A DNA stretch of 64,000 nt from Gammaproteobacteria bacterium (lineage in GTDB: Bacteria; Pseudomonadota; Gammaproteobacteria; JAJDYQ01), in NCBI GenBank assembly GCA_965214035.1, contig OZ243932.1, positions 937,215 to 1,001,214 of the forward strand, in the 5' to 3' direction. The position numbers were made by a program, and so were the translations under genes. This document shows, in pieces, positions 10,655 through 37,001 of the stretch (within the stretch, counting starts at the first letter, position 1; each line of letters opens with the position of its first letter). The notes under the pieces were generated by a model that saw only the letters and a program-made list of their open reading frames with translations, ran no database searches and had not been told where the DNA came from.

Positions 10655-10812
10655 TCAGGAAACAAAGGCCAACTGAACCGCTTGCCAGTGATGGCAGGCT
10701 GATTCAAGATAAGCCCGACCCTGTCGGCGGGCACGGTATCCGGCCCTTGCAACGGATACCACAAACAGTAACCGATAATCGGAAATTGATAAAAACACAC
10801 GACGGAGGATAA

Positions 10813-10923: not shown

Positions 10924-10940
10924 CCTGTGTAAAAATACAG

Positions 10941-10968
10941 CCCCCCCCCCCCCCCCCCCCCCCCCCCC
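10941..10968 (+). repeat. Homopolymeric tract of 28 C followed by 7 A, 24 nt upstream of the giant-gene start.
   Basis: Counted directly in the sequence. The homologous tract upstream of copy 2 has 19 C. Confidence 0.95.
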
Positions 10969-10990
10969 AAAAAAATGAGAGGGTATATCT

Positions 10991-11016
10991 GATGCCGGCC
11001 GTCGATGCCGGCCGCT
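10991..11016 (+). repeat. 13-bp direct repeat, two units (GATGCCGGCCGTC and GATGCCGGCCGCT), containing the start codon.
   Basis: Direct comparison with copy 2 (26966..26978), which has a single unit. Confidence 0.9.
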
Positions 11017-23000: not shown

Positions 23001-24842
23001 ACCGCGCCGCCGTTGCCGTTGCTCATTATTGATAATACGCCGGCATTGGTGCTCTCGACGACAGAGGTTCTGACCTTAGAGGTTCTGACCTTGCAGCCGG
23101 GGGGCAGCAGCAGCTACACGGTGGCACTGGCGATTGCACCGACCGCAGATGTGATCGTGACGGTGATGGGGCATGAGGACCCGGGTCTGACAGTGGCACC
23201 GGAAAGTCTGACATTCAGTATGGGTAACTGGAATATGGCACAGACCATCACGGTGACGGCGGGCACGGACAGCAATGCGTTGTCGAATCCGGTGATTCTG
23301 ACCCATATGGCATCGGGCGGAAACTATGACCGTGTGACGGCCCAGGTTGAGGTCCGTGTGGGCAGCACGGAGGCGATGCAGGCCGCACAGCAGATGTGGT
23401 TGCCACGCTTTGGTCTGACGGCGATTGAGCATATGCTGGGTGGTCTGCATCATCGTTTCACGGCATCAGACCAGCCGGGTCTGTCGGGTAATCTGAACGG
23501 TCTGCCGCGCGGTCAGTCATTCAATGCGGCGCGTTTGCTGTCCAGTCGCGGCGGCCCGGATGCCAGTGTGCTGGGCATTGAGCAATTGGGTGCCGGTTCG
23601 GCGGATCGTCCGCGCAAGCTGTCACGCACGCTGTCCTTGCCGAAGCTGTTGCCGTCCATGCTGCGCGGCAGTCATTTCACATTGAGTGACGAGGACGGTA
23701 CTTCGATCTGGGGGCGTGCCTCGTATTCGAGCTATAAAGACGCCGACGATGGTACTTCGATAGACGGCGAGGTCACCACGGCCATGCTGGGTGTTGACCA
23801 CAGCAGTGGTCGGACGCTGCTGGGTCTGGCGCTGGCTTACAGCGACAGTGATGGTGAATGGCAGGGGCAGGGTGAATCGGACAAAGGTGAGTTGTCCGGT
23901 ACGCTGGCCTCCCTGCTGCCGTACCTGCGTTATGACCTGACGGAGCGTCTGCAACTGTGGGGTGCGGCGAGCTATGGTCGAGGTGATCTGGAGCAGACTT
24001 CAGAGACCGGCAGCGGCATCGAGTCGGAGCACGATCTGGAGCAGGTATCGGCGACGCTGGGTCTGCGCGGTACGTTGCTGGATCGTCCGGTGGAAGAGGG
24101 CGGTTTGAGTCTGAGGCTGATTTCGGATATGACGCTGGCGCGTATCAAGTCGGATGATTCCAATGCTGGAGTGCCGGGAGTGCCGGGTATGACGTTGGAT
24201 ACACAGCGTTTCCGGATGGGTCTGGAATGGTCCTGGCAGTTGCCGGAAGGGGGCGGTATGCGCCTGACACCGGAGCTGGAACTGGGTCTGCGTTATGACG
24301 GTGGCGATACCAGTGAAGGCTTTGGTCTGGAGCTGGGCGGTGGCCTGAACTGGCAGTTACCGGCCCGTGGTTTGACCTTTGATGTGCGCAGCCGTTATCT
24401 GCTGGAGCATGAGGCCTCCGGGCGTGAGGAGTGGGGTCTGTCCGGTTCACTGCGTTACAAGGCACGGCCGGATTCGGCGCATGGTCCGTCGTTCAGTCTG
24501 CGCCATGAGTACGGCAATGCACCGGCGGCCAGTGGTCTGGATCGGTTGTTGTCGGACTCCCTGACAGATGCGTTGAAGGAAGACAACTCTCAAACCGCTG
24601 ATGTATCGAGCCGCTGGACGCTGAAAGGCGAGTGGGGTTTTGCCCTGATGGATGATGCCACCGGTATCCCCTATGCGAGTCTGTCGGCATCCGATGCGAA
24701 ACGTGATCTGACTCTGGGCTGGCGTCTGTTGTCGAACCCGGCTGGCCTGAAGTCGAAGCTGGATATCAAGGCCATCCGCCGCGAGCAGGATGATAATAAC
24801 CCGCGCCACAGCGTCGGCGCACAGTGGAAGCTGAATTGGTAG
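10992..24842 (+). CDS. Giant (~4616 aa) modular surface protein, copy 1. It has an extended signal region, dozens of Calx-beta-like and Ig-like ~100-aa repeats, and a C-terminal autotransporter-like beta-barrel domain.
   Basis: The ATG at 10992 has an SD (GAGAGGG) 8 nt upstream. The signal peptide is MVSLLGLPLLFGLATQAVAQ. Repeats include GTATRGTDYTL motifs. The C-terminus (MQAAQQMWLPRFGLT...AQWKLNW) is shared by all three copies. Confidence 0.85.
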   Translation: MPAVDAGRSAVHSCREAGASEPPGRLTRRSFSDSFHSVTARTAGWLRRAAMVSLLGLPLLFGLATQAVAQTVPTLKVEGDFSVTEGDSGTITLTLSQAASGTITFTTGSYLTDCDTHNCPTDISGASASDFSSGTGSTRTITFNIGDTTKSLTFMTTEDSAIESTEIFSIGIVDLASSEATIDPGTPADRIFFGTFMSWWVRILDDDAPPMISIAGGSPATEGAGTLTYTLTANKPPATDLTINLTVSEDETDGQNFVAAGDENSQAVTFPAGTTAASYTIPITDDEVDEARGEVTVTINDGTGYTAGTDTVTITVRDDDRTIVTLAENPAGDLDEGARKQITLTLNRPLVSGETQVLSLELGGTATVNTDYTLAGIPADGVRYEDLASGNPGIVFTGQTSGSATTATLTVTAIADGISDPGEVITMEFATSELVSPDGDAGIQDARGGGPVSATRTIAFRITEQPALVLNPSMLTIDEGDTATYIVSLATQPNASVAITVSGQADTDLTLSGDTLSGDTLSFTMMNWNQPQTITVTAGSDDDAQSDDPIALLHTATGGNYAGVTGEVTVTITEDDTAGITVQPTTLAVDEGGTNNYTVVLTSAPAGEVIIEVRPGTVATVDNDMLTFAQSNWNQAQTVTVTGMDDAVYNAGDARSGTITHTIGTADGGAYTTDLELDSVTVTVTDDDNPTLTVSLPNGETTIEEGSGFTRVRITADPEPGAGDSSRLINQDPSNDLSNVLFFSPGYGWSSFRAPDTSFDPDIDFEFNIADNDNDQPNGTLTIDVSVLRGFAAGSPSMVTLTIIDNDPTEVSLIRTGSTGAIDEGGTVAFTVQLSRALVAGEIIDVPLVIDGTGVTPADWSLSATGTGVVLSNENTMTPLLRFENAGAQTAELTLTAISDNTVEGGGSETYVIDLGLGLVISPDELNGIDQGSLNTNVGGGADPHSGSNTFSVQVDDPTLTVSLPNGETTIEEGGSSITARFTANPPVAQSLGIPSNFRTLTTGYTSFTSLEDDSLVRPVDIGYFIDENNMDQPNGTLTIHVSDSRFAAGSPSMVTLTIIDNDPTEVSLIYTGSTGAIDEGQAVTFTVQLSRALIAGEIIDVPLAIDGTGVTPADWGLTEQAGIANTGVSLHDTDTAVPFIRFSGAGAETALLQLAAALDDTDEGGSETFMIALGQDGSTTNGFDLPGRATNVGGGADPDGDNNRFELVVNDEGSTVLSIGIDSVTDAEGDAGETTFKTVTVSLSRPYSRDLVVNVRRSGSATRGTDYELVGTGDNNALINFNPVRRFTITAGATSVQFRIRVIGDTVFDIDETVVLTLIGLTTGISEAVTDVVISNIVGAVTHTIENDDPGGKVTVSRSALSMEEADGAASYTLVLDSQPGDEIILTVAGGEADTATVNTTGGMAGIEQTLTFTTMNWDQAQTVLVAAVNDDEDNAGGSRRLTLTHTITTGDDAGYSTGLPVDAVVVTVVDDDRTIVTLDENPAGDLDEGASKQITLTLNRGLVNGEELVVPLTFGGDATRGTDYTLMEVAANGVSYANLTGSDDPAVTFIGPSSGTTAMTATLTLRAIADSTSDPGESVTIVPGTLTDTSLDGGGTVTGSLAFNIIERVALILGPDRLMVSEGMQTASYTIRLASEPTAPVTVVVTGYVGTGLTLDNDELIFTAANWNIARQVTLTTAAMDSDLAGSTLQLRHTASGGNYLSVTADLSVTLLDDTAGVVVMPSGDNTLVSEDGARTDDYTLRLSTQPVGDVVVRATAGTGLSVNDAAAADLTFTATNWNQAQTVTIAGIDDDIASGALRTVSVTHTIVNSADSGYPEDALRIANLDVMLIDDDTAGLLLSSSDLTLSEGDTISYTVRLTSQPTAVVSVTITSDNEDLTAGNTPLMFSTDNWSMPQTVLLTANADDDSDDEQAQLTHRVAGGDYGAISEVISVRITDRSAGVDITQSGGNTIVREDGGEDSYTLVLNAAPRGDVTLTVTAAAGITVDTDSLTFTTGNWQTPQPVTVTGVNDDLDNPDDGREVMIRHAVSGAGDSAGYTPALSIAPVSVTVLDDDTAGLRFSRSVLAVVEGGSTSYGVRLTSQPTAVVTVTIASDNGDLTAGNTPLMFSTDNWPMPQTVTVTAGTDSDMDNNDVALSHTATGGGYNSVSATLGAMLLEGGTASVSIVQSDGRTIVTEGVSTDFYEVVLNTAPDRDVTVRVSADSGVTVNGAATLDLVFTPTNWHEAQPVMVAAVDNNADDGVRTADISHILSVGDNNDYDRTLTIAGVTVTVNRDPDDSRGRLVTLSGGDQEGSTRSFNFVFESSPGRSLGADEVMTLPLIPGGDAVRGQDYQVRCERNPAGRGSHPAVSCVESTDGQLMFILDGTQISPGRRTFRFTLPLEVELLEDNMAEPVETLTLRLGENGQDFRIPIMDAPSTVSVEFNKSIYRNNENFHSITLILEISPLLGRAIDLPLLFIDGTAQAGSDFEPISSTVLNFTSEGRAFFAITLLDDQIAEGDERFTVVIDETRLPDFITVGTNAAATVIMTDNDERGLVFDSDTLTLAEGGTGSYTVRLSSQPTDEVAVVIAGQAGTDLMLDRDILTFTTANWNQAQMVTVMAEDDDDGDADRIVLVHTASGGDYGLTARVQADIIDREAPEVRLNKEAITVSEGGSGDSYTLVLHTEPAGTVTVTLAPAAGITVQPGSVTFTVDNWNTPQAVTVTGVNSDEIDRGDRTVTIVHTITATDDADDYPEDLRIDPVRVTIEEDDEAGVMIVESGDRTAVSEDGGIRDDYTVVLTSQPAARVVVTATAAAGVSVDTQSLSGVQNTLTFTTLNWQSPQTVTVTGVDVDTVDRGDLDVSITHAITTTAGGYVKELSIDSVPVQVIDNDAANRLLFELVDPAADVLVTEGSEVAYTMQLVGQPLADVTVDISGHDGTDVTPAPTRLTFTTQNWNAGQTVTLTVAADDSGDGERVTLTHRASGGGYDGTEVALEVAITDSDISGVSISKDTLVAIENEAVTDSYTVVLDIPPAGDVTIQGEIPIQGGTLDIRLVFTTVNWNQPQTVSIFGSIFLADNIDNPGGERTATTIMHTVTSTDSGYDGIEVDDVTVTVTDVDPTTVTLSGAALDVVEGTERTLTVSLERALVAGEVLPVPLTFAGTATRGTDYTLEGVPATGIGYENLNSGNAQVTFTGGTGAVGTATLTFRATPDADDEGSGETVTIGLGTLDENSGTGLNGGGTGTSSLAPFRIIEKPMINIAGGPAVTEGGSVTFTLTASEAPLSDLTINLMVTDAVHSDFLAAARGGRQSITFVGGTTSVSYEIPTLADIDDEAGGTVMVALLDGDGYVAGSAPSATTMVNDDDATTVTLAGTDDDVGEGARKELTVTLSRGLVAGEVLPVALSFAGTATRGTDYTLMETVANGVSYANLNGGGSATVTFTGPAAGVGVTEARLSLRAELDGTTEGLETVIIGLGTLDADSGTNLGGGATGVDELGDFQIQETPEIVLERNSLMLTEQGSATYTVGLSVSPTADVTVRITGQVDTDLQVDADTLIFSQTNWSTARTVTLMAVSDTDSEDEAPVMLRHTATGGNYGLAIMRTVTVSIADNTPGLVLSTGSLDMEENEAESYTIRLAIRPMADVTVSVSSGDAPRLRVTGGDSLTFTPTNWNRAQSVTVMAEDDDDSDANQVTLTHTADAGYGSVTGDITVDIADDDIPRVVLGVDELTVIEGGSASYTVELGTRPSGNVTIALSGQGSTLRPDRSELTFDAGNWGQAQTITLTAVMDSNTTHDQVTLIHTASGYSAAPADLPVTITDSTPQLSFSQTTFNLDEGDSTTYTLELSAEPVGTVTVTLSGHERTELTPEPTELTFTQDNWSEAQAITLTAGTDSNSVDETITLTHSADAGYGAVTEEVTVTVRDADTPRLILNTDELIEGGSATYRVTEQGSATYTVRLGTQPRVDVTVTLTGHEGSDLVPTPARLVFGRDNWNRAQQVTLTARDDDDSVNDAVTLSHRASGGAYAGVTAPPLPLLIIDNTPALVLSTTEVLTLEVLTLQPGGSSSYTVALAIAPTADVIVTVMGHEDPGLTVAPESLTFSMGNWNMAQTITVTAGTDSNALSNPVILTHMASGGNYDRVTAQVEVRVGSTEAMQAAQQMWLPRFGLTAIEHMLGGLHHRFTASDQPGLSGNLNGLPRGQSFNAARLLSSRGGPDASVLGIEQLGAGSADRPRKLSRTLSLPKLLPSMLRGSHFTLSDEDGTSIWGRASYSSYKDADDGTSIDGEVTTAMLGVDHSSGRTLLGLALAYSDSDGEWQGQGESDKGELSGTLASLLPYLRYDLTERLQLWGAASYGRGDLEQTSETGSGIESEHDLEQVSATLGLRGTLLDRPVEEGGLSLRLISDMTLARIKSDDSNAGVPGVPGMTLDTQRFRMGLEWSWQLPEGGGMRLTPELELGLRYDGGDTSEGFGLELGGGLNWQLPARGLTFDVRSRYLLEHEASGREEWGLSGSLRYKARPDSAHGPSFSLRHEYGNAPAASGLDRLLSDSLTDALKEDNSQTADVSSRWTLKGEWGFALMDDATGIPYASLSASDAKRDLTLGWRLLSNPAGLKSKLDIKAIRREQDDNNPRHSVGAQWKLNW

Positions 24843-24850
24843 GAAGTCCG

Positions 24851-24927
24851 TAGCCGGCTCTTCTCTCTGCCGGCTGTTGCGGGGCCGGATTCCATCCACA
24901 TTGTCACCGGCTTCGCTTTTTTATGGC
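24851..24927 (+). terminator. Stem-loops plus a T6 run downstream of giant gene copy 1 (candidate intrinsic terminator).
   Basis: The hairpin AGCCGGC-N10-GCCGGCT is followed by GCGGGGCCGG...CCGGCTTCGC-TTTTTT. The copy-2 homolog is a perfect 10-bp stem. Confidence 0.4.
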
Positions 24928-25014
24928 TCCAACCGTCCATGCCTGACACGCTCAGGCATAGGCGGCAGGCTGTCCAGATTGCCCGACTGGCTCAGAGATA
25001 TATTGCCTCGTGAA

Positions 25015-25252
25015 TCAGGCTGATATTACGACGCAAAAGGAATTTCTCAGGTTGTGGTTGGCTTCGCATAACTTATCCAGTAGTTCAGGGGTCGATATTT
25101 CACATACTGTCGCCGTCTCTAATGCCATAACGGTGGAATTGGGACATATACTCCCAGCCCATCCAGACCCATAATCTCGCCGGGCAGGTAAAAGCCGGTT
25201 ATCTGCTCCCGGCCCTGCTCGTTAATGATGAATGTTTTATAAGAACCTGAGC
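25015..25252 (-). pseudogene. Decayed FNR/CRP-family regulator remnant (internal frameshift, both ends lost).
   Basis: The translated pieces are FIINEQGREQITGFYLPGEIMGLDGLG and ALETATVCEISTPELLDKLCEANHNLRNSF. They match the E. coli FNR segments [24 protein letters not shown] and [29 protein letters not shown]. Confidence 0.5.
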
Positions 25253-25311
25253 TGACAGCGAAAATCCTTCATGATGCTGCTTTCTGCATTAGGATAGCCA
25301 TATCCGTTTGA

Positions 25312-26100
25312 ATGGTTATCCAGAACATGGTTTTGCCTCCAAAACGACAGGGCCGCTCGCTTTCCGAATGGTTTCAGACAACAGCAGGAGCAGACTTACT
25401 GGAAAAGGAAAATACCCTGTTGAAGAAAGTCCTGCCGGAGCTGTTTGGCTATCATCTACTGTGGACCGGGGAAGGGAATTATTGGTCGGGTGTTGCAGCT
25501 TCATCGGTCGCACACCATGTCCGCCTGCAGGCACCGGATAAATCCGCTGCCAAAGATTGTGATGTCATCGGCAGCCATACCAGCCTGCCTGTTCAGCGGG
25601 ACAGCATTGATGTTGTCATTCTGCCGCATCTTCTGGAGTATGACCGACACCCACATGCGATCCTGAGAGAGGCCGAACGTGTACTCCATCCAAACGGCCA
25701 TATCATCATTCTGGGATTTAATCCGGTCGGCTATCATGGGTTCTGCCGGGTATTATCCGGATTCCGGGGTAATATGCCGTGGCAGGGACATTTTTATCAT
25801 CCCTTGCGCATCCGAGACTGGCTTAAATTGCTTGGTTTTGTTGTTAAGTCAGTAAGTTACACTGCTTTTTTACCGTCAATTCGATATGGAAAAATGGCCC
25901 GATGCAGCAGATTTATTGAAAAGGCGGGGCAGGGGATGCTTGCGCCGTTGAGTGGTGTGTATATGATCACCGCTCGTAATTTGATCGTTGCCTCCAATGT
26001 GATCAAGCCTGGGCGGAGCAGGAAAAAGGCGGTTCTTGATGGGGTGGTAGAACCGACAACCCGCATCTGTTTGCCGAATAAGCGGCTCCGGGAAGTATGA
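25312..26100 (+). CDS. Class I SAM-dependent methyltransferase, YafS-like (duplicate copy).
   Basis: The product is 262 aa and carries the MTase motif [11 protein letters not shown]...[13 protein letters not shown]. It is 98-99 percent identical to 35770..36558. Confidence 0.7.
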   Translation: MVIQNMVLPPKRQGRSLSEWFQTTAGADLLEKENTLLKKVLPELFGYHLLWTGEGNYWSGVAASSVAHHVRLQAPDKSAAKDCDVIGSHTSLPVQRDSIDVVILPHLLEYDRHPHAILREAERVLHPNGHIIILGFNPVGYHGFCRVLSGFRGNMPWQGHFYHPLRIRDWLKLLGFVVKSVSYTAFLPSIRYGKMARCSRFIEKAGQGMLAPLSGVYMITARNLIVASNVIKPGRSRKKAVLDGVVEPTTRICLPNKRLREV

Positions 26101-26146
26101 GCAAAGTAGAAATTTTTGTCGATGGTGCCTGTCGCGGTAATCCCGG
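26097..26146 (+). pseudogene. rnhA: 5' stub of rnhA (the first ~17 codons, [17 protein letters not shown]), cut off at the duplication junction.
   Basis: The stub is identical to the start of the intact rnhA at 36555. It then runs into antisense ppc sequence. Confidence 0.75.
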
Positions 26147-26470
26147 CCACGACGCTCCGCTGCGGCCGGCCATAGCTCGTTGGCGGTGCATAAAAGACTC
26201 CTCGGCGATATGCAGCAGGCCGAAAAAGACCGTATAGGCCCGGATTACACGCGACAACAAACCCGGCTCAAGCCGGCGGATACGGCGCATCAAACGCCGA
26301 CGCAAGGCCGGATCATCTTTTTTCCGCAGTTTGCTGAAACCGCGGCGCAAAGACTGCACCGTCTTCAAAACCTCAGACTCCTCCTGAGAACTCAATACAT
26401 GACCGAGCACATCCCCGAACAGTCGCACCCGACTGCGCAATACCTTGTCATACCTCAACTCAATAGCCAT
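26147..26470 (-). pseudogene. ppc: Duplicated 5' fragment of ppc (first 108 codons). In the ORF track it is part of the chimeric ORF 26003..26569.
   Basis: ~98 percent nt identity to 10159..10482. The fragment retains the ppc promoter region. Confidence 0.8.
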
Positions 26471-26801
26471 AAAAGCAACCCGTGCGACACCGATCCACCG
26501 ATAAAACAGCGCATTATAACCGGCAAAATCCCTCCATAAAGGCAGCCGTGACCACAAACCCCGACCCAATACACCATAAATTTCGACAAAAAATACAATT
26601 TATGCTAAAAAAGGCTGTTTTTTGCTGACCGGCTGCTATAATTCAGGAAACAAAGGCCAACTGAACCGCTTGCCAGTGATGGCAGGCTGATTCAAGATAA
26701 GCCCAACCCTGTCAGCAGGCACGGTATCCGGCCCTTGCAACGGATACCACAAACAGTAACCGATAATTGGAAATTGATGAAAACACGCGACGGAGAATAA
26801 C

Positions 26802-27032
26802 ATGAAATCTGGACAAAAATGGATTCTGAACAGCAACAAGGGTCATGCCGTGATATGCAAAATCATCACAGTCATAAACAATGCCTTGCGACCGGCAGGC
26901 ATCGATATTGACCTGTGTAAAAATACAGCCCCCCCCCCCCCCCCCCCAAATGGGAGGGTATATCTGATGCCGGCCGCTCTGCGGTGCATTCCTGTCGCGA
27001 GGCAGGTGCCTCTGAGCCTCCTGGCTGGCTGA
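26802..27032 (+). CDS. Upstream leader ORF (76 aa) of giant gene copy 2. It reads through the poly-C as Pro codons and through the ancestral start ATG.
   Basis: GGAGAATAAC-ATG context. It is in frame with the ATG at 26967 and stops at 27032, because of the missing 13-bp unit. Confidence 0.3.
   Translation: MKSGQKWILNSNKGHAVICKIITVINNALRPAGIDIDLCKNTAPPPPPPNGRVYLMPAALRCIPVARQVPLSLLAG
26929..26947 (+). repeat. Homopolymeric tract of 19 C, followed by only 3 A, upstream of giant gene copy 2.
   Basis: Counted directly in the sequence. Confidence 0.95.
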
Positions 27033-30000
27033 CGCGCCGGTCTTTTTCCGACAGTTTCCATTCTGTGACAGCCCGCACCGCCGGCTGGCTGCGCCGTTGC
27101 CGGGGTTCGTCCTCCCGGCCTGAATCTTCCGCTCCTGCGTCTGCCTTATCGAATCCTGACCGTTTAACTTCATCATCCGTCATTCCCGCGAAGGCGGGAA
27201 TCCACAACCGCCGGAACACGCCCCAACCCGATAATCATTCCCCCCTTGAGGGGGAGTCCAATCCGCTTGCGGATTGGGTGGGGGGACACAACCGTCATCC
27301 TGCGCCCCAACCAGCCGTCATTCCCGTGGAAGCGGGAATCCGCAACCATACGGAGATTGCGGTTAACCGTCATCGTAGGGGCGCCCCTCTGTGGGTGCCC
27401 GCTATCGTTGATACCTGTTCCGGTGGTTGCGGGAGGGCACAGAGACCCTCCCCTACGATAACGGTTCGATCACCACACAAAACCCACCTCGCCCGCCGTT
27501 CGTGGCGTGACTTGCTTTCAGCGTTGCTGTGCCTGTCGCTGCTTTTGGTCCTCGCTGCCGGGGAGGCGCAGGCGCAGACCACCCTGTCCATCAGCGCCCC
27601 CGCGGACGCGAACGAGGGCGATGCGGGCACGCGGGACCTCACGTTCACGGTGACCCGGACCGGAGGGACGGCCAATGCGAACTATCAAGTCTGTTTCACC
27701 GGCACGGCGACCATCGACACGACCGCGGCCGGCACCATTCCCGACGCCGCCGACTACCAGCCTTTAACCATCGTCAGCGGAACCGGTTTTCCAGCGGGCA
27801 GCAATTGCCTCACCGGCCAAACCGCCGGCATCGGTTCCGAGGGCATCCGCGTGAAGGGCGACACCGACGCCGAGTCCGACGAAACGGTGATCGCGACGCT
27901 GTCCTTGCGTGGTCCAAACCCCGGCGTCACCCTCGGCAACTCCGTAGTAACCCACACGATCCTCGACGACGACGACCCACAAATCACCATTGCTGCCGAC
28001 ACCGCCTCTGTCGCCGAAGGCACCACCGCCAGCTTTACCATCACGACCAACGCGCCTCCGGCAGACGACCTGACCATTAATTTAACTGTCTCTGATGACG
28101 AAACCAATGGCCAGAACTTTGTCGCTGCCGGTGACGAAGGCAGCAAAACGGTCACCATTCAGGCCGGTCAACTCTCGGCCACTCATACCGTCGCCACAGA
28201 CGACGACAGCACGGCCGAACTGAGCGGTGCGGTCACCGTCACCCTCAACGACGGCACCGGCTACACCGTCGGCTCCACCAACACCGCCACCGTCAACATC
28301 ACCAATGACGACCCCCATGTCGTATCCATCAGCATTGAACCGGAAGAAGCAGAAGGAGATGAAGGCAATAGTGGTGGCTTGACCGATGCCGCCACACTGA
28401 CCTTTACCGTCAATCCGCCATGGCCAGAGAGATTCGGGCTTAGAATCTGTTTGGACGGTGGTACCGCCGAGCGTGGTAGCAGTGCAGACTATCAGTTCAC
28501 ACGCCTGAATGACACAGTGCCTGCTATTGCTCCTGTTGCTGGTGGTTGCGATAGCGCTGTGCTAACCCTCTTCAGCAGTAATCAGGCATCCTCCATCTCA
28601 AAAATCCGGGTCAACGGTGACAGCCTGTTCGAGGCAGACGAAACCGTCACCGTCAGCCTGCAACGAAGCAATAATTTGGGCGGCACCTTCGACACTCCCG
28701 ACGATGTCATCATCTCCCCCACGGCCGGCAGTGTCATCTACACCATCCGCAATGACGATGACCCGCCCATGATTTCCATTGCCGGCGGCAGTCCGGCCAC
28801 CGAGGGAGTCGGCACGCTCACCTACACACTGACGGCGGACAAACCACCGGTCACAGATCTGACCATTGACCTGACCGTCATGGACGTACCCGGCAGTGAC
28901 TTTATTGCAGCAGAAGGCGACCAGACCGTCACCTTCCCGGCCGGCACCACCGCGCTCAACTACGAAATTCCGATCACCGACGATGAAGTCGATGAAGCCA
29001 GCGGCGAGGTCACGGTGACAATCAATGACGGTACCGGTTATACCGCCGGCACCGACACGGCCACCATCAGGGTGCGCGACGACGATAGAACCATCGTCAC
29101 CCTGGACGAAAATCCGGCCGGCGACCTCGATGAAGGCGCCAGCAAACAGATTACTCTCACACTGAACCGTCCGCTGGTTTCAGGTGAGGGACTGGTCTTC
29201 TCGCTCACCCTTGGTGGCACCGCCACGGTGAATACGGACTATACCCTGGCCGGCATACCGGCGGACGGCGTGAGTTACAGTAATCTGGCCCCGCCGACCG
29301 AGAGCTCTGCAATCTCCTTTACCGGCCAGACTTCCGGCTCTGCCACGACCGCCACACTGACCGTGACGGCCATCGCAGATGGTATCTTTGACCCCGGCGA
29401 GGGCATCACCATAGAGTTTGCAACGGGAATAGTAAGCCCGGACGGCGATGCGGGAATACAGGACGCTCGGGGCGGCGGTCCGGTCAGCGCCACCCGAACG
29501 ATTGCCTTCAGGATCAACGAACAACCGGCGCTGGTACTGAATCCATCCACCCTGACCATTGACGAGGGCGATACGGCGACCTACACCGTGTCTCTGGCCA
29601 CCCAGCCCAATGCGCCAGTGGCCATTACTGTAAGCGGTCAGGCCGATACCGATCTGACCTTGAGTGATGATACCCTCAACTTCACCATGATGAACTGGAA
29701 CCAGCCGCAGACCATCATGGTCACCGCCGGGTCGGACGACGACACCCAATCGGATGACCCGATCGCCCTGTTGCACACCGCCACCGGTGGCGACTATGCC
29801 ACCGTCACCGGTGAAGTCACGGTCACCATCACCGAAGACGATACGGCCGGTATCACCGTACAGCCGACCACCCTGGCCGTGGATGAAGACGGCACCAACA
29901 ACTATACCGTGGTACTGACCTCGGCCCCGGCCGGCGAGGTCATCATCACGGTTGATTCGGGCACGGTCGCCACCGTCAATAATGACATGCTGACCTTTGC

Positions 30001-33000
30001 CCAGAGTAACTGGAATCAGGCACAGACGGTCACCGTGACCGGCATGGATGACAATGTCCACAATGCCGGCGATGCACGCTCTGGCACCATCACCCATGCC
30101 ATTAGTCAGGGCGACAGCGGCGATTACCCTATTGGCCGTGAGATTGACCCGGTACAGCTCACCGTCGCCGACAACGACGACCCGGCCTTGAGCATACAGG
30201 TGGTGGGCGACCATACCAGCATTGAAGAAGGCGGTGCCCGCATGATACGGATCACCGTATCGCCGGATACCGGCGAGAGCTTTATGCTGCTCGATGTCCG
30301 TCCCTTGCTGAGGATCAGCGACGGCTATGAGTTGACGCTGGTTCAGACCGACACCAGCCTGAATCCGACCCTGCAATTTGAGGTCAGCGTGACCGACAAT
30401 GATCAGGATGGGGCGGATGGTATGCTGACCATTGATGTTTCCTCCGTGACCGGCTATGCCGCCGGCAGCCCGGCCATGGTACAACTGACTGTCAATGACA
30501 ACGACCAGGCCGATATCCTGATCACCGGGACCGGTAGCGTCACCCGTGTCGCTGAAAACGGCGGCACCGACAGCTACAGGGTGGTACTGACCTCACAGCC
30601 AACCGCCAGCGTCACCGTCACCGCTGCTCCCGGCACCGGCATCACGATGACCGACACCACCCTGACCTTTACCAGCACGGACTGGAACCAACCGCAGACC
30701 CTCATCGTCACCGGTCAGGATAACAATGACGACGATGCCAGCGATCGCCGTGTCGCCATCAGCCATACCCTGAGCGGCGATAGCCAATACAGCGGCCTCA
30801 GCATTGACGACCTGATGGTCATGGTTGATGACGACGACCCGACCGAAGTCAGCCTGACCCGCACCGGCAGCACGGGCGCCATTGATGAAGGCCAGGCCGT
30901 TACCTTCACGGTCGAGTTAGGTCGTGCCCTGATCGCCGGCGAAATCATCGAGGTACCTCTGAGCGTAACCGGTACCGATGTCGAACTGACCGACTGGAGC
31001 CTGGCACTACAATCGGGCACGGGTGTGGTTCTGTCCAATGAGGACACAATGACCCCACAACTGAGTTTTGAGAATGCTGGCGCACAGACGGCTGAACTGA
31101 CCTTGACCGCCATCGGCGACAATACGATGGAGGGCGGTGGTTCCGAGACCTTCATCATTGCCCTGGGGCCGGACGGCACGGTCACCAATGGCTTTGACCA
31201 CAGCAGTCTGAACACGAATGTGGGCGGCGGTGCCGATCCGGATTCACCCGACCATTTCAGTGTGCAGGTCAACGATGTCATGGTGATGCCGATGATCACC
31301 ATCACCGGCGGTACCACGGTCACAGAAGGAATGGGCAGTGCCAGCTTTACCCTGACCGCCACACCGGCTCCGACGGACGCCCTGACCCTGATGCTCAATA
31401 TCAGCGGCGGCAGCGGTTTTATCGCCACCAGCGGCGCACAGTCAGTCACCCTGAATAGTGGTTCCAGCACGGTGACCTATTTGATTGCGACGCAGGGCGA
31501 TGCCGTGGATGAGGCGAATGGCACGGTCACCGTGACGGTGGGTGATGGTGCGGGCTATGAAGTGGGCGATCCGTCCGAGGTGTCCGCGTCCGTCGCGATA
31601 CATGACGACGATGCCACCACAGTCACGCTGGCCGGTGATCCTGGTAATGTGGCCGAAGGCGACAGCAAACCGCTCACCCTCACCCTGGGTCGTGCCCTGA
31701 CGGCCGGCGAACAACTGACCGTGCCGCTGACCTTCGGCGGTACGGCTGTCTTCGGCACCGACTACACACTGACCGGCACCACAGCCAATGGCGTGGATTA
31801 CAGCGATCTGAGCGGCGGCAGCGTGATCTTCAGCGCCGGTGGTCAGATGGCCACCCTGACCCTGATGGCACAAACGGATGCCGTGGCCGAGACCGGCGGC
31901 GAAACGGTCCGCATTGCTCTGGGCACACTGGACAGCAGTTCCGGCACCAACCTGGGCGGCGGTGCCTCTGGCACGACCAATCTGGACGAGTTTACGATTG
32001 AGGAACAACCGGCGCTGGTATTGAGCACGACCCGCCTGACCCTCATTGAAGGCGACAGTGCCAGCTACCGAGTCAGCCTGGCAGTCGCACCGAGCGCCGA
32101 TGTCATGGTGACCCTCACCGGCACCAATGCCGAACTACAGGCCGATGACACCACCCTGACCTTTACCTCACAGAACTGGGGTAACCCGCAGACCGTCACG
32201 CTGACGGCGGTCACGGACAGTAACACCGTGACGGATCAGGTGACGCTGACCCACAGTGCCGATGCCGGCTATGATTCCGTCATGGCCAGCCTGACGGTGG
32301 AGCTGATTGACAGCACACCACAGTTGAGTTTCTCGCAGACCACGATTGATCTGAATGAAGGTGACAGCACGACTTATACACTGCAACTATCGGCTGAGCC
32401 GGTCGGCACGGTGACGGTCGCACTGAGCGGTTATGACGGCACTGCGCTGGCGCCGCAGCCGCTTGAGTTGACCTTTACACAGGATAACTGGAATCAGGCA
32501 CAGACGATTACCCTGAGCGCCGGCACGGACAGCAACAGCGTGAATGAGGCTGACGTGACACTGGTTCATACGGCGGATGCCGGCTACGGCGAGGAGGTCA
32601 CGGAAGACGTGACGGTGACGATTGCCGACACCGACGCACCGCGCCTGATTGTGGGTGTCAATACCCTGAGCGTGACCGAGCAGGGCAGTGCGACCTACAC
32701 GGTCACCCTGACCACCGAGCCGAGTGCCGATGTCACGGTGACGATTACCGGTCAATCCGGTGATCTGAGAGTGGATAGCGGCACTGAGCTGACCTTCACG
32801 CAGTCCAACTGGAATGAGGGACAGGTGGTCACACTGTCAGCCATTGCCGACGATGACAGCGAGGATGAGGCGTTGATCACCCTGACGCACACGGCGTCCG
32901 GTGGTGGATACGGGACTGCCTCGGCGGAACGGTTATCGGTGCGCATTCTGGACAGCACACGGGGTTTGGTGCTCTCAGAGAGCAGCCTGGATATGGAAGA

Positions 33001-35368
33001 AAATGATACCGCGAGCTACACGGTGCGTCTGGCGCTGCGTCCGATGGCGGATGTGACGGTGAGTGTATCTTCCGGGGATGCGACCCGCCTGCGGGTGACC
33101 GGTGGTGACAGCCTGACCTTTACGCCGACCAACTGGAATCAGGCACAGACGGTGACGGTGATGGCCGCAGACGACATTGACAGTGATGCCAATCGGGTGC
33201 TGCTGACCCATACGGCGGATGCCGACTATGGTGCGGTGCAGGCTGTGCTGCCGGTTGAGATTGCCGATGACGATGTGCCGCGTCTGCTGCTGAGTGTTGA
33301 TGAGTTGAGCTTGATTGAAGGCGGCAGTGCGAGCTACACGGTAGCACTGGGTACCCGTCCATCGGGCAATGTGACGGTCGCACTGAGCGGTCAGGGCAGC
33401 GCTCTGAGGCCGGACAGGTCCGAACTGACTTTTGATGCAAGCAACTGGGCTCAGGCGCAGACCATCACGCTGACGGCGGCCATGGACAGTAACACCGATG
33501 ATGGTCAAGTGAGATTGACTCACACAGCCAGTGGTGGCTATAGTGCGGCCCCGGTCCGCCTGCCGGTGACCATCACCGACAGTTCGCCGCAGTTGCAGTT
33601 TTCACGCATGGCGATTGATCTCGATGAAGGCGGCAGTACCCGCTACACCGTGCGCCTGTCGGCTCGGCCGGTGGCGGAAGTCACAGTCATGCTCAGCGGT
33701 CATGCCGGTACCGGCATGAGCGTGAATCCGCTTGAGTTGACCTTTGGCCTGACGGACTGGAATCAGGCACAGACCATTACCTTGACGGCCGGCACGGACA
33801 GCAACAGTGTGGATGAGACCATCACGTTGACCCATAGCGCGAATGCCGGCTACGGTGAGGTGACGGAAGAGGTGACGGTCACGGTCCGGGACAGCGATGA
33901 ATCGGCCGACATGACGGCCATGCAGGCCGCACAGCAGATGTGGCTGCCGCGCTTTGGTCTGACGGCCGTCGAGCACATGCTGGGTGGTCTGGATTACCGA
34001 TTCACAGCATCGAGTCAGCCGGGTCTGTCGGGCAATCTGAACGGTCTGCCGCGCGGTCAGTCATTCAATGCGGCGCGTCTGTTGTCCAGCCGTGGCAGCC
34101 CGGATGCCAGTGCGATGGGTATTGAGCAGTTGGGTGCCGGTTCGTCGGATCGTCCGCGCAAGCTGTCACGCACCCTGTCACTGCCGAAGCTGCTGCCGTC
34201 GTTGCTGCGTGGTAGTCATTTCACATTCCGTGACGAGGACGGTACTTCGATCTGGGGGCGTGCCTCGTATTCGAGCTATAAAGACGCCGACGATGGTACT
34301 TCGATAGACGGCGAGGTCACCACGGCCATGCTGGGTGTTGACCACAGCAGTGGTCGGACGCTGCTGGGTCTGGCACTGGCCTACAGCGACAGCGATGGCG
34401 AATGGCAGAGTGCATCAGCATCGGACGAAGGTGATCTGTCCGGTACGCTGGCCTCCCTGCTGCCGTACCTGCGTTATGACCTGACGGAGCGTCTGCAACT
34501 GTGGGGTGCGGCGAGCTACGGTCGAGGTGATCTGGAGCAGACTTCACAGACCGGCAGGTCGGAGCACGATCTGGAGCAGGTATCGGCCACCGCCGGTCTG
34601 CGCGGTACGTTGCTGGATCGTCCGGTGGAAGAGGGCGGTTTGAGTCTGAGGCTGATTTCGGGCCTGACACTGGCGCGTATCAAGTCGGATGATTCCCGCG
34701 TCATGGCGGGCACCGAGGCGGATACGCAGCGTTTCCGCATGGGTCTGGCCTGGTCCTGGCAGTTACCGGAAGAGGACGGTGTGCGTCTGACACCGGAACT
34801 GGAGCTGGGTCTGCGTTATGACGGCGGCGATACCAGCGAAGGCTTTGGTCTGGAGCTGGGCGGCGGCCTGAGCTGGCAGACACCGGCCAAGGGTTTGACG
34901 GTGGATATACGCGGTCGCTATCTGCTGGAGCATGAGGCTGCCGAGCGTGAGGAGTGGGGTCTGTCCGGCTCACTGCGCTACGAGGCGTGGCCAAACTCGG
35001 CCTATGGCCCATCGTTCAGCCTGCGCCATGAGTACGGCAATGCACCGGCGGCCAGCGGTCTGGATCGGTTGTTATCGGATTCATTGACGGATGCGCTGGA
35101 GGAAGAAGACAACCGACATACTGCTGCCGTATCGAGCCGCTGGACGCTGAAAGGCGAGTGGGGCTTTGCCCTGACAGACGATGCCACCGGCATCCCCTAT
35201 GCGAGCCTGTCGGCCTCCGATGCGAAACGTGATCTGACCCTCGGCTGGCGTCTGTTGTCGAACCCGGCTGGCCTGAAGTCGAAGCTGGATATCAAGGCCA
35301 TCCGCCGCGAGCAGGATGACAATAACCCGCGCCATAGCGTCGGCGCACAGTGGAAGCTGAATTGGTAG
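26984..35368 (+). CDS. Giant modular surface protein, copy 2 (~2620-2794 aa). The domain repertoire and C-terminal beta-barrel domain match copy 1. The 5' end is rearranged, and the true start probably lies near 27500 (TTG 27512), just before the signal peptide.
   Basis: The ORF is long and uninterrupted. Its first ~170 codons translate the repeat-element insertion. The signal-peptide-like LLSALLCLSLLLVLAAGEAQAQ is at 27512..27580. The C-terminal 490 aa are ~95 percent identical to copy 1. Confidence 0.75.
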   Translation: MHSCREAGASEPPGWLTRRSFSDSFHSVTARTAGWLRRCRGSSSRPESSAPASALSNPDRLTSSSVIPAKAGIHNRRNTPQPDNHSPLEGESNPLADWVGGHNRHPAPQPAVIPVEAGIRNHTEIAVNRHRRGAPLWVPAIVDTCSGGCGRAQRPSPTITVRSPHKTHLARRSWRDLLSALLCLSLLLVLAAGEAQAQTTLSISAPADANEGDAGTRDLTFTVTRTGGTANANYQVCFTGTATIDTTAAGTIPDAADYQPLTIVSGTGFPAGSNCLTGQTAGIGSEGIRVKGDTDAESDETVIATLSLRGPNPGVTLGNSVVTHTILDDDDPQITIAADTASVAEGTTASFTITTNAPPADDLTINLTVSDDETNGQNFVAAGDEGSKTVTIQAGQLSATHTVATDDDSTAELSGAVTVTLNDGTGYTVGSTNTATVNITNDDPHVVSISIEPEEAEGDEGNSGGLTDAATLTFTVNPPWPERFGLRICLDGGTAERGSSADYQFTRLNDTVPAIAPVAGGCDSAVLTLFSSNQASSISKIRVNGDSLFEADETVTVSLQRSNNLGGTFDTPDDVIISPTAGSVIYTIRNDDDPPMISIAGGSPATEGVGTLTYTLTADKPPVTDLTIDLTVMDVPGSDFIAAEGDQTVTFPAGTTALNYEIPITDDEVDEASGEVTVTINDGTGYTAGTDTATIRVRDDDRTIVTLDENPAGDLDEGASKQITLTLNRPLVSGEGLVFSLTLGGTATVNTDYTLAGIPADGVSYSNLAPPTESSAISFTGQTSGSATTATLTVTAIADGIFDPGEGITIEFATGIVSPDGDAGIQDARGGGPVSATRTIAFRINEQPALVLNPSTLTIDEGDTATYTVSLATQPNAPVAITVSGQADTDLTLSDDTLNFTMMNWNQPQTIMVTAGSDDDTQSDDPIALLHTATGGDYATVTGEVTVTITEDDTAGITVQPTTLAVDEDGTNNYTVVLTSAPAGEVIITVDSGTVATVNNDMLTFAQSNWNQAQTVTVTGMDDNVHNAGDARSGTITHAISQGDSGDYPIGREIDPVQLTVADNDDPALSIQVVGDHTSIEEGGARMIRITVSPDTGESFMLLDVRPLLRISDGYELTLVQTDTSLNPTLQFEVSVTDNDQDGADGMLTIDVSSVTGYAAGSPAMVQLTVNDNDQADILITGTGSVTRVAENGGTDSYRVVLTSQPTASVTVTAAPGTGITMTDTTLTFTSTDWNQPQTLIVTGQDNNDDDASDRRVAISHTLSGDSQYSGLSIDDLMVMVDDDDPTEVSLTRTGSTGAIDEGQAVTFTVELGRALIAGEIIEVPLSVTGTDVELTDWSLALQSGTGVVLSNEDTMTPQLSFENAGAQTAELTLTAIGDNTMEGGGSETFIIALGPDGTVTNGFDHSSLNTNVGGGADPDSPDHFSVQVNDVMVMPMITITGGTTVTEGMGSASFTLTATPAPTDALTLMLNISGGSGFIATSGAQSVTLNSGSSTVTYLIATQGDAVDEANGTVTVTVGDGAGYEVGDPSEVSASVAIHDDDATTVTLAGDPGNVAEGDSKPLTLTLGRALTAGEQLTVPLTFGGTAVFGTDYTLTGTTANGVDYSDLSGGSVIFSAGGQMATLTLMAQTDAVAETGGETVRIALGTLDSSSGTNLGGGASGTTNLDEFTIEEQPALVLSTTRLTLIEGDSASYRVSLAVAPSADVMVTLTGTNAELQADDTTLTFTSQNWGNPQTVTLTAVTDSNTVTDQVTLTHSADAGYDSVMASLTVELIDSTPQLSFSQTTIDLNEGDSTTYTLQLSAEPVGTVTVALSGYDGTALAPQPLELTFTQDNWNQAQTITLSAGTDSNSVNEADVTLVHTADAGYGEEVTEDVTVTIADTDAPRLIVGVNTLSVTEQGSATYTVTLTTEPSADVTVTITGQSGDLRVDSGTELTFTQSNWNEGQVVTLSAIADDDSEDEALITLTHTASGGGYGTASAERLSVRILDSTRGLVLSESSLDMEENDTASYTVRLALRPMADVTVSVSSGDATRLRVTGGDSLTFTPTNWNQAQTVTVMAADDIDSDANRVLLTHTADADYGAVQAVLPVEIADDDVPRLLLSVDELSLIEGGSASYTVALGTRPSGNVTVALSGQGSALRPDRSELTFDASNWAQAQTITLTAAMDSNTDDGQVRLTHTASGGYSAAPVRLPVTITDSSPQLQFSRMAIDLDEGGSTRYTVRLSARPVAEVTVMLSGHAGTGMSVNPLELTFGLTDWNQAQTITLTAGTDSNSVDETITLTHSANAGYGEVTEEVTVTVRDSDESADMTAMQAAQQMWLPRFGLTAVEHMLGGLDYRFTASSQPGLSGNLNGLPRGQSFNAARLLSSRGSPDASAMGIEQLGAGSSDRPRKLSRTLSLPKLLPSLLRGSHFTFRDEDGTSIWGRASYSSYKDADDGTSIDGEVTTAMLGVDHSSGRTLLGLALAYSDSDGEWQSASASDEGDLSGTLASLLPYLRYDLTERLQLWGAASYGRGDLEQTSQTGRSEHDLEQVSATAGLRGTLLDRPVEEGGLSLRLISGLTLARIKSDDSRVMAGTEADTQRFRMGLAWSWQLPEEDGVRLTPELELGLRYDGGDTSEGFGLELGGGLSWQTPAKGLTVDIRGRYLLEHEAAEREEWGLSGSLRYEAWPNSAYGPSFSLRHEYGNAPAASGLDRLLSDSLTDALEEEDNRHTAAVSSRWTLKGEWGFALTDDATGIPYASLSASDAKRDLTLGWRLLSNPAGLKSKLDIKAIRREQDDNNPRHSVGAQWKLNW
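27101..27470 (+). repeat. Cluster of small palindromic repeat elements (REP or MITE-like) inserted in the copy-2 5' region. It includes two ATTCCC-N8-GGGAAT hairpins and several other perfect hairpins.
   Basis: The hairpins are ATTCCCGCGAAGGCGGGAAT (27180..27199) and ATTCCCGTGGAAGCGGGAAT. CAATCCGCttGCGGATTG, CCCCCttgaGGGGG and GGGGCGCCCC are also present. A flanking 10-bp inverted repeat ATCGTAGGGG...CCCCTACGAT is present. The whole segment is absent from copy 1. Confidence 0.7.
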
Positions 35369-35376
35369 GAAGTCCG

Positions 35377-35446
35377 TAGCCGGCACCTCTCTGCCGGCTG
35401 TTGCGGGGCCGGATCCATCCGTATTGTCACCGGCCCCGCTTTTTTA
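35377..35446 (+). terminator. Intrinsic terminator downstream of giant gene copy 2.
   Basis: GCGGGGCCGG-N17-CCGGCCCCGC is a perfect 10-bp stem, followed by TTTTTT. Confidence 0.55.
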
Positions 35447-35474
35447 TGGCTCCAACCGTCCATGCCTGACACGC

Positions 35475-35712
35475 TCAGGCATAGTACGACGCAAAAGGAA
35501 TTTCTCAGGTTGTGGTTGGCTTCGCATAACTTATCCAGTAGTTCAGGGGTCGATATTTCACATACTGTCGCCGTCTCTAATGCCATAGCGGTGGAATTGG
35601 GACATATACCCCCAGCCCATCCAGACCCACAATCTCGCCGGGCAGGTAAAAGCCGGTTATCTGCTCCCGGCCCTGCTCGTTAATGATGAATGTTTTATAA
35701 GAACCTGAGCTG
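35475..35712 (-). pseudogene. Decayed FNR/CRP-family regulator remnant (second copy).
   Basis: The degenerate pieces match those at 25015..25252. The ORF track lists 35197..35586 (MALETATVCEISTPELLDKLCEANHNLRNSF...). Confidence 0.5.
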
Positions 35713-35769
35713 ACAGCGAAAATCCTTCATGATGCTGCTTTCTGCATTATGATAGCAATATCCGTTTGA

Positions 35770-36558
35770 ATGGTTATCCAGATCATGGTTTTGCCTCCAA
35801 AACGACAGGGCCGCTCGCTTTCCGAATGGTTTCAGACAACAGCAGGAGCAGACTTACTGGAAAAGGAAAATGCCCTGTTGAAGAAAGTCCTGCCGGAGCT
35901 GTTTGGCTATCATCTACTGTGGACCGGGGAAGGGAATTATTGGTCGGGTGTTGCAGCTTCATCGGTCGCACACCATGTCCGCCTGCAGGCACCGGATAAA
36001 TCCGCTGCCAAAGATTGTGATGTCATCGGCAGCCATACCAGCCTGCCTGTTCAGCGGGACAGCATTGATGTTGTCATTCTGCCGCATCTTCTGGAGTATG
36101 ACCCACACCCACATGCGATCCTGAGAGAGGCCGAACGTGTACTCCATCCAAACGGCCATATCATCATTTTGGGATTTAATCCGGTCGGCTATCATGGGTT
36201 CTGCCGGGTATTATCCGGATTCCGGGGTAATATGCCGTGGCAGGGACATTTTTATCATCCCTTGCGCATCCGAGACTGGCTTAAATTGCTTGGTTTTGTT
36301 GTTAAGTCAGTAAGTTACACTGCTTTTTTACCGTCAATTCGATATGAAAAAATGGCCCGATGCAGCAGATTTATTGAAAAGGCGGGGCAGGGGATGCTTG
36401 CGCCGTTGAGTGGTGTGTATATGATCACCGCTCGTAATTTGATCGTTACCTCCAATGTGATCAAGCCTGGGCGGAGCAGGAAAAAGGCGGTTCTTGATGG
36501 GGTGGCAGAACCGACAACCCGCATCTGTTTGCCGAATAAGCGGCTCCGGGAAGTATGA
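35770..36558 (+). CDS. Class I SAM-dependent methyltransferase, YafS-like.
   Basis: The product is 262 aa. Its stop overlaps the rnhA start (ATGA). The yafS-rnhA-dnaQ order matches E. coli. Confidence 0.75.
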
Positions 36559-37001
36559 GCAAAGTAGAAATTTTTGTCGATGGTGCCTGTCGCGGTAATC
36601 CCGGTCGCGGCGGCTGGGGTGCATTGATGCGCTACAGAGGGCAGGAAAAATCCTTTAATGGGGGGGAAGTGGACACAACCAATAATCGTATGGAGCTGGC
36701 AGCGGCAATTATGGCACTGGAAAAATTGAAGCGCCCAAGTGAGGTTGTGCTGACAACAGATTCGCAGTATGTAAAAAAAGGCATCAGTGAGTGGATCCAT
36801 AACTGGAAAAAAAATGGCTGGAAAACCACCGCTAAAAAACCGGTAAAAAACATGGATCTCTGGCAGCGTCTTGAGCAGGCAGTCAGTCAGCATAATGTGG
36901 AGTGGTGCTGGATAAAGGGCCACAGCGGTCATCGGGAGAATGAAATAGCCGATAGACTGGCTAATGCGGCTATTGATGCACTACCCCCGGATAAGCCATA
37001 A
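36555..37001 (+). CDS. rnhA: Ribonuclease HI.
   Basis: The product is 148 aa and starts [23 protein letters not shown]. The TDSQYV motif is present. Confidence 0.9.

Follow-up and report, generated by a model that had tools for sequence, protein, structure and literature searches.

About half of the dRS3 repeats of Neisseria have been redefined as an oriented 28-nt motif, NTS (CGTCATTCCCGCGMAVGCGGGAATCYRG; Nat Commun 2025, PMC11893778); the single-domain GIY-YIG nuclease SsnA binds this motif when it is folded into a hairpin of single-stranded DNA and cuts immediately upstream of it, the critical bases being three nucleotides on the 5' side of the palindrome for cutting and a C on its 3' side for binding (PMC11893778). 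In Neisseria, SsnA modulates the recombination of NTS-bearing DNA, and NTS-like 'Ssn-related motifs' (SRMs) flank ssn genes in many phyla; the words 'in-frame', 'intergenic', and 'open reading' do not occur in the text of that paper (PMC11893778). Here we describe a hairpin-repeat cluster from a marine gammaproteobacterium, located at 27174–27466 of a 64,000-nt stretch (hereafter, the window; contig OZ243932.1, positions 937,215–1,001,214 of the forward strand), near the 5' end of the second of two giant adhesin open reading frames (ORFs) arranged in tandem (copy 1, 10893/10992–24842; copy 2, 26984–35368). The cluster is a mosaic (BIME/NIME-like) of hairpins of the NTS/dRS3 kind, for which NTS or Ssn-related motif is a more exact name than 'dRS3-like', the term used in the original prediction made from the letters of the window. 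As an explanation of the whole, we favor, with confidence only a little better than even, an NTS/dRS3 mosaic that lies in a switchable adhesin gene, is kept in frame, and forms hairpins cut by an Ssn-type nuclease. The hairpin kind itself is already known and widespread, and the novelty of the locus possibly lies in its coding-embedded role.

The assignment to this family rests on two NTS-type units of the + strand. Unit A1 (27176–27209) consists of a CCGTCAT head, the hairpin ATTCCCGCGAAGGCGGGAAT at 27182–27201 with an 8-bp stem and a 4-nt loop, and the tail ATCCACAACC; its segment 27178–27205 agrees with the NTS motif at 27 of 28 positions and also fits the degenerate SRM pattern. Unit A2 (27315–27347; hairpin ATTCCCGTGGAAGCGGGAAT at 27320–27339) has the same orientation at a spacing of 138 nt and agrees at 25 of 28 positions (27316–27343), being a variant with three mismatches, where motif matching in the NTS study tolerated one (PMC11893778). 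Both units read CGTC-ATTCCC...GGGAAT-C, so that the critical bases are kept (GTC before the palindrome and C after it), and both fold as single-stranded DNA hairpins (A1, −8.9 kcal/mol, z = −4.2; A2, −7.4 kcal/mol, z = −2.1). The ATTCCC-N8-GGGAAT architecture that had been read as dRS3-like is borne out by these two palindromes, which are the only exact copies in the 64 kb; 100 shuffles give an expected number of 0.00.

The other modules of the repeat-derived DNA (~290 nt in all) were delimited by comparison with 119 stretches of other genomes, fetched with a 31-nt unit as the pattern. The A1 tail (27210–27232, + strand) is complementary to the loop of module D, with CAACCGCCGGAACA (27205–27218) pairing with 27414–27429, and possibly derives from part of a D unit in inverted orientation. 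Module B (27233–27288, + strand) contains two adjacent hairpins, at 27241–27254 (CCCCCTTGAGGGGG) and 27258–27277 (with CAATCCGCTTGCGGATTG at 27259–27276), and a G-rich tail (GGGTGGGGGGAC). Module C (27289–27314, + strand) is a half unit with a CCGTCAT head and no hairpin, kept in the composite copies of Arenicellales. Module D (27366–27466, + strand) is a compound 100-nt hairpin with a CCGTCAT head, an outer stem formed by the 10-nt inverted repeat ATCGTAGGGG/CCCCTACGAT (27372–27381 and 27450–27459), and inner stems CTCTGTG/CACAGAG and CCCGC/GCGGG; a further hairpin, GGGGCGCCCC, is found at 27378–27387. The four CCGTCAT heads are all on the + (coding) strand. Every hairpin listed in the original prediction is real and present where it had been placed, and none recurs elsewhere in the 64 kb even with one or two mismatches allowed, as had been said. 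The description of the insert as made 'almost entirely' of hairpins was overstated, since the repeat DNA is confined to 27174–27466 and the flanks are unstructured and match nothing. The upstream flank, a unique spacer (27101–27173, + strand), has no repeat matches and a structure z-score of 0.0, with RGSSSRPESSAPASALSNPDRLTSS as its in-frame translation, and in the downstream spacer (27467–27511, + strand) homology to the DNA just upstream of an adhesin start at another locus, L002, begins at 27489.

The cluster folds in excess of shuffled sequences both as DNA (z = −4.6, 27165–27475) and as RNA (z = −3.7, 27101–27530), the individual modules giving z-scores of −1.8 to −5.4. Action at the RNA level, with the cluster serving as a structured 5' leader or a small RNA (whalefall-1-like) that alters the stability or translation of the copy-2 mRNA, would agree with this RNA fold, with a match of Rfam whalefall-1 to 27237–27287 (E = 2e-4 in a 600-nt search), and with a module B copy in the presumed 5' untranslated region of an adhesin gene of another genome (L024). 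However, the whalefall-1 match scores 25.6 bits, below the gathering score of 37, and the homologous modules in eight related loci include none at E ≤ 0.1; membership of whalefall-1 was rejected on these two points. The cluster also contains no terminator-like site, the only one in 26500–27700 being at 27023–27042, outside the cluster and within the leader, which speaks against the terminator role that had been proposed. Furthermore, the stems are kept by sequence identity and not by covariation, and copies are found in both orientations, which suggests an element acting at the DNA level. We therefore regard an RNA-level role as improbable.

That the hairpins belong to a repeat family, as had been predicted, is confirmed outside the window. 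More than 119 genome stretches, belonging to many phyla (Chloroflexota, Pseudomonadota, Acidobacteriota, Cyanobacteriota, and others), contain the exact 31-nt unit with the ATCCNCAACC tail, and many of these stretches come from sponge-symbiont genomes (Dehalococcoidia, Arenicellales, and Candidatus Poriferihabitaceae). Among the fetched stretches, modules B and D occur only in loci of one Arenicellales genome (OZ220677) and one Candidatus Poriferihabitaceae genome (CBDBQH01), in which the 235-nt composite B-C-A2-D has several copies at 82–86% identity, partly in tandem arrays, being multi-copy in the Arenicellales genome; module B has a single match in the Joint Genome Institute (JGI) metagenomes. 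Both genomes encode 95-aa GIY-YIG proteins (PF01541 only) that are 94% identical and adjoin NTS units, and a 95-aa single-domain GIY-YIG gene adjoins NTS units in loci L027, L047, and L052. In locus L125 (Arenicellales OZ220677, 2486290–2492577), positions 2902–3346 contain an IS-like NTS-ssn-NTS layout, in which one NTS unit is 72 nt upstream of the ssn-like gene and another, inverted, is 31 nt downstream of it; directly after this array come D and B modules and a giant gene of the Calx-beta/He_PIG type. The best 120 matches of the ssn-like 95-aa protein are all 71–94% identical over the full length. This conservation suggests that the ssn-like gene spread horizontally together with the NTS unit.

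A different account would class the units as REP/REPIN elements, spread by a RAYT (IS200/IS605-type Y1) transposase and not linked to Ssn. Module D starts with GTAGGGG, which resembles the GTAG heads of REPs. Furthermore, ATTCCCGCGCAGGCGGGAATC is the REP seed of the Neisseria REPIN-RAYT system, the same neisserial 21-mer having been treated as a REPIN (bioRxiv 10.1101/2021.07.10.451892). Against this account, A1 and A2 are direct repeats 138 nt apart and not an inverted pair within 130 nt, and the related genomes contain NTS-flanked ssn-like genes. Also, jackhmmer seeded with an E. coli RAYT sequence, which is a weak test here, detected nothing resembling a RAYT among the ORFs of the window and of 121 loci. 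We give such a mode of spread a low probability. An association with dRS3-type phage integrases, likewise envisaged in the original prediction, was dropped, because the extended NTS pattern had 0 matches in 2.9 million viral contigs; no integrase was found near the cluster.

The two adhesin copies share a 5' cassette of ~420 nt (26681–27097 and 10693–11135, 92% identity) containing a short ORF, a poly-C tract, a GGGAGGG ribosome-binding site with an ATG, and a 38-residue leader. In copy 2, all on the + strand, the short ORF (26802–26928) starts at ATG 26802 after GGAG and runs into the poly-C in frame 0 (the adhesin ORF being in frame 2); it is followed by the tract of 19 C (26929–26947; 28 C at 10941–10968 in copy 1), by the Shine–Dalgarno-like GGGAGGG with ATG 26967 (26952–26969), which is the start used by the copy-1-type gene and is out of frame in copy 2, and by the leader common with copy 1 (26984–27100; VHSCREAGASEPPGWLTRRSFSDSFHSVTARTAGWLRR), where homology to copy 1 and to a related metagenome contig (L001) stops at 27097–27100. 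In copy 1 the leader joins the hydrophobic core of the signal peptide directly, whereas in copy 2 the two are separated by 411 nt (27101–27511, 137 codons), in frame and with 0 stops; the extra DNA that had been noted is thus present, with a size of 411 nt in place of ~370 bp. The signal-peptide-like segment (27512–27574, + strand) has a hydrophobic core and an AQA cleavage motif (LLSALLCLSLLLVLAAGEAQA/QT) and is followed up to 35368 by a body of the Calx-beta/fn3/LapA type; fn3, Calx-beta, and LapA-type domains were detected by a Pfam scan in the copy-2 product, and the body is an intact 8.4-kb ORF.

The view of this segment as an insertion into copy 2 holds for its left end, where a sharp junction is seen at 27100/27101, but not for its right end, where no junction exists: the entire 27101–28743 region (1.65 kb, comprising the cluster, signal peptide, and first domain) has no counterpart in copy 1, with which copy 2 realigns only from 28744 (90% identity to 11597–12979). 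Because of this lack of homology, and because colinear clusters are found in adhesin genes of another genome (described below), the cluster is not a simple insertion; from these alignments, it looks like an old inherited, frame-preserving part of the adhesin 5' end and not like a fresh arrival. The two copies are mosaics in which blocks of 86–90% identity alternate with blocks of 65–77% identity or of no similarity (block pairs 28744–30102 and 11597–12979, and 33756–35484 and 23227–24961), as expected from repeated recombination between paralogues, and the cluster is 74 nt from the homology breakpoint between them. The signal peptide and first domain of copy 2 resemble the L002 adhesin gene (74% DNA identity from 27489), which has its own 30-C tract upstream (9877–9906) and lacks the cluster, and whose TTG start codon corresponds to TGG in the window (27503). 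An 'empty site' was sought in L002, to which this signal peptide and N-terminal domain are most closely related, but none was obtained, the alignment beginning only at 27489 with unrelated DNA upstream. No orthologues of the N-terminal domain were found in the JGI metagenomes.

A mosaic of this kind might also arise artificially, as an assembly chimera in which DNA of other origin was attached to a copy-1-type 5' cassette. Assembly is made difficult by the presence of two 5' cassettes that are near-identical and by the long homopolymer tracts, and a related draft assembly breaks near this region; on the other hand, the frame is continuous over both junctions, the layout of a cluster followed by a signal peptide occurs in independent assemblies, and copy 2 continues downstream as a coherent mosaic paralogue. 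A chimera is, in our judgment, very improbable.

The closest parallel to copy 2 is provided by two giant adhesin paralogues of a Candidatus Poriferihabitaceae genome, at loci L024 (+ strand) and L031 (− strand). In both, an ATG after AGGAAC is followed by 26 codons, a (CAAG)21 or (CAAG)13 tract (L024, ~3541–3624; L031, ~4800–4851), a cluster of 300–400 nt with the module order NTS, D fragment, B, NTS', and D, and, directly thereafter, the hydrophobic signal core and the Calx-beta protein. The clusters of the window, L024, and L031 align colinearly. The adhesin frame of L024 and L031 is open back through the cluster and the repeat tract, and the ATG is one repeat unit out of frame. An ATG with an out-of-frame tract is the textbook arrangement of translational phase variation, as in the tetranucleotide tracts of Haemophilus influenzae. 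Similarly, the adhesin frame of copy 2 is open from 26921 through the 19-C tract, and none of the upstream ATGs is in frame with it; a tract of 20 or 17 C would bring ATG 26802 (GGAG site) into this frame, and one of 18 C would do so for ATG 26881. ATG 26967 is out of frame because copy 2 lacks one unit of the 13-nt direct repeat GCCGGCCGTCGAT, which is found twice in copy 1 (10992–11020) and in L001/P0034 (10001–10030) and once in copy 2 (26967–26983). Accordingly, of the proposal that the cluster uncouples the copy-2 body from its ancestral start, it holds that the cluster separates the copy-1-type start and leader from the signal peptide, but the main cause of the uncoupling is the 13-nt deletion upstream of the cluster. 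Copy 2 is thus predicted to be off as sequenced and one slippage event from on, and the arrangement suggests translational phase variation of the giant adhesins of the window, L024, and L031, although the relation between tract and frame is not universal, since L002 has a stop after its tract.

Several further observations concern these 5' regions. Each giant adhesin gene that was examined is preceded by a long simple-sequence tract (28 C, 19 C, 30 C, (CAAG)21, and (CAAG)13), and the clusters repeatedly adjoin giant Calx-beta genes, at the 5' end in L024 and L031 and at the 3' end in L036 and L125. In L024, the module B copy (3341–3392) is situated between TTGACA/TATAAT-like hexamers and the adhesin ribosome-binding site, in the presumed 5' untranslated region. 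Sigma-70 promoters picked by eye in L024/L031 and upstream of the poly-C fail the 16–18 nt spacing rule (the L024 hexamers are 19 nt apart), and none is claimed.

Whether the cluster is translated was considered from its reading frame. The long ORF of copy 2 reads through the cluster (...VIPAKAGIHNRR...VIPVEAGIRNH...), which had been dismissed as probably spurious. In the three genic clusters (window, L024, and L031), the adhesin frame contains 0 stops, whereas the other two frames contain 2–8. The distances between four anchors (A1 head, B tail, D head, and signal core) are 92/116/116, 190/208/208, and 331/274/349 nt, so that they differ between the genes by 6, 18, 24, 57, and 75 nt, always congruent modulo 3, for which the chance over four independent comparisons is (1/3)^4 = ~0.012. 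In contrast, the intergenic copies of the cluster (n = 5) have 1–2 nt indels and a stop in the equivalent frame. Dismissal as spurious is therefore doubtful, the three genic clusters being stop-free with their spacing kept modulo 3 and the intergenic copies being frameshifted.

The strongest competing explanation holds that the cluster consists of extragenic repeats, neutral or selfish, within a leader that is not translated, that copy 2 starts in or after the cluster (GTG 27395 or TTG 27512) or is a silent or decaying paralogue, and that the open frame is due to chance. Several observations agree with it or weigh against our preferred reading. The NTS copies elsewhere are mostly extragenic, 17% being inside long stop-free stretches as compared with 61% of random positions, and the large Arenicellales clusters are intergenic. 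In dinucleotide shuffles, the probability of having no stop is 0.05, 0.19, and 0.14 for the three genic clusters, and locus L075 has a chance-open cluster ahead of a PstS-like gene that possesses an ATG of its own; because of these two results, the stop-free frame was downgraded as a proof of translation. Moreover, L024 and L031 are not fully independent, since they are paralogues. In copy 2 as sequenced, ATG 26967 is out of frame, an in-frame start with a ribosome-binding site is absent, and the ancestral TTG of L002 has become TGG. The signal core would be ~190–240 residues from the start codon, which is unusual for Sec export, and module D offers possible internal starts (GTG 27395 for the window; for L024 and L031, an in-frame TTG preceded at 7 nt by AGGGG). 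The preferred reading is further weakened by the results concerning the family in the source organism: no ssn-like gene was found in the 64-kb window; none of the best 120 ssn-like homologues (P0173–P0292) was assignable to the source contig; only one cluster is present in the 64 kb; and no NTS occurs in 22 kb from a genome whose DNA is 93% identical. Accordingly, the source genome may contain the family only rarely or in an inactive state. Finally, the putative role of the cluster in recombination is drawn by analogy with Neisseria.

On the other side, an untranslated leader does not readily agree with a spacing that is congruent modulo 3 over three genes in spite of length differences of 6–75 nt, with stops and frameshifts in the intergenic but not the genic copies, with the adhesin frame of L024/L031 that is open back through the repeat tract in a classical phase-variation layout, or with the copy-2 body remaining an intact 8.4-kb ORF. 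Altogether, we consider the untranslated leader rather unlikely, though it is the alternative to be taken most seriously, and judge at roughly even odds, from sequence comparison, that the cluster may be translated in the ON phase.

Under the reading that we prefer, of a frame-kept NTS/dRS3 mosaic in a switchable adhesin gene, slippage of the poly-C would put copy 2 in frame, and translation of the cluster would then add a basic stretch rich in proline before the signal peptide. Where the DNA is single-stranded, the hairpins would extrude and, by analogy with Neisseria, would be bound and cut on the CGTCAT strand by an Ssn-type nuclease whose gene would lie elsewhere in the genome. Such cutting might influence how the mosaic adhesin paralogues recombine, in the way that SsnA acts on NTS-bearing DNA in Neisseria. 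More tentatively, with somewhat less than even confidence, we propose that an Ssn-target hairpin block has been co-opted as coding sequence: frame-constrained, dual in use (as DNA hairpins and as a basic pre-signal peptide), positioned between a phase-variation tract and a signal peptide, and conserved in at least two lineages of marine, probably sponge-associated, gammaproteobacteria. On this view, the hairpins could also delimit the cassettes that are exchanged between adhesin paralogues.

As for the surroundings of the cluster, the giant-gene block (11000–35000) has a GC content of 58–63%, as compared with 44–52% in the flanking housekeeping DNA, an excess that suggests a foreign origin of the adhesin block and, with it, of the repeat cluster; the repeat block may have arrived together with the adhesin DNA, as would also agree with the lack of NTS in the 22 kb of the genome with 93% DNA identity. 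Each giant gene is followed by a 1.14-kb duplicate (25015–26154 and 35475–36612, 98.4% identity) containing a 262-aa methyltransferase-domain ORF. A terminator-like hairpin with TTTTT occurs inside the leader of both copies (27023–27042 and 11061–11080) and could attenuate transcription ahead of the gene body. In L001 (10977–12185), the copy-1-type leader gene is cut at 302 aa, with an IS256-family (Transposase_mut) gene directly after it and several IS1595 genes nearby. The UvrC protein encoded in the window is 95% identical to proteins of two draft assemblies (one being GCA_022825085.1) and ~57% identical to those of named Gammaproteobacteria.

With this locus, the association of such repeats with genes for variable surface proteins comes to include marine gammaproteobacteria of the symbiont type. 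The locus also offers a compact test case, with two tandem mosaic adhesin paralogues that each have a phase-variable tract and of which one has a repeat block. If the cluster is translated, AGIHNR or GAPLWVPAIVDTCSGGCGR would be peptide stretches derived from its frame, gene callers and annotators should cease to call 'VIPAKAGI'-type peptides spurious here, and the locus would be an example of palindromic repeats under constraint at both the DNA and the protein levels; if it is not, this is an ordinary repeat cluster in a leader region.

Among the described systems, NTS/SRM shares with the cluster the oriented 28-nt motif, the critical flanking bases, the single-stranded DNA hairpin, the clustering of units next to surface-protein genes, and, in related genomes, the NTS-ssn-NTS arrangement with a 95-aa GIY-YIG gene. 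It differs in that the host here is a marine gammaproteobacterium and not Neisseria, the window has no ssn gene, the genome appears to have few copies, modules of other types are interspersed with the units, and the cluster is part of a gene segment in which the frame is preserved. The dRS3/NIME repeats have in common with it the exact ATTCCC-N8-GGGAAT palindrome, the mosaic association with other short repeats, and the position next to variable surface-protein genes and recombination breakpoints; however, NIMEs are intergenic, occur in hundreds of copies, and belong to Neisseria and a filamentous-phage integrase, whereas here a single cluster lies within an ORF and viral contigs gave no matches. 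With the REP/BIME/REPIN-RAYT elements the cluster shares short GC-rich hairpins that form mosaics and tandem arrays and are mostly extragenic, but its units are not an inverted pair, a RAYT was not found (by the weak test described above), and the associated gene in related genomes is of the GIY-YIG type and not a Y1 transposase. The Rickettsia palindromic elements (RPEs), which Ogata and colleagues in 2000 are said to have described as inserted in frame into genes, are likewise palindromic repeats inside ORFs that leave the frame unbroken and add a peptide segment (here, 0 stops over 411 nt, with translation predicted). Their sequence family is unrelated, and they are dispersed over numerous housekeeping genes; here, by contrast, a single conserved block stands ahead of the signal peptide of phase-variable adhesins. 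Lastly, whalefall-1 (RF01762; Weinberg et al. 2010, PMC2864571), a motif so far obtained from whale-fall metagenomes only (PMC2864571), resembles module B in its two adjacent hairpins with CUUG-type loops, its G-rich 3' tail, and its marine host-associated source; module B differs in scoring below the gathering threshold, and the modules of related loci in having no match. The whalefall-1 motif might itself be a module of this repeat family.

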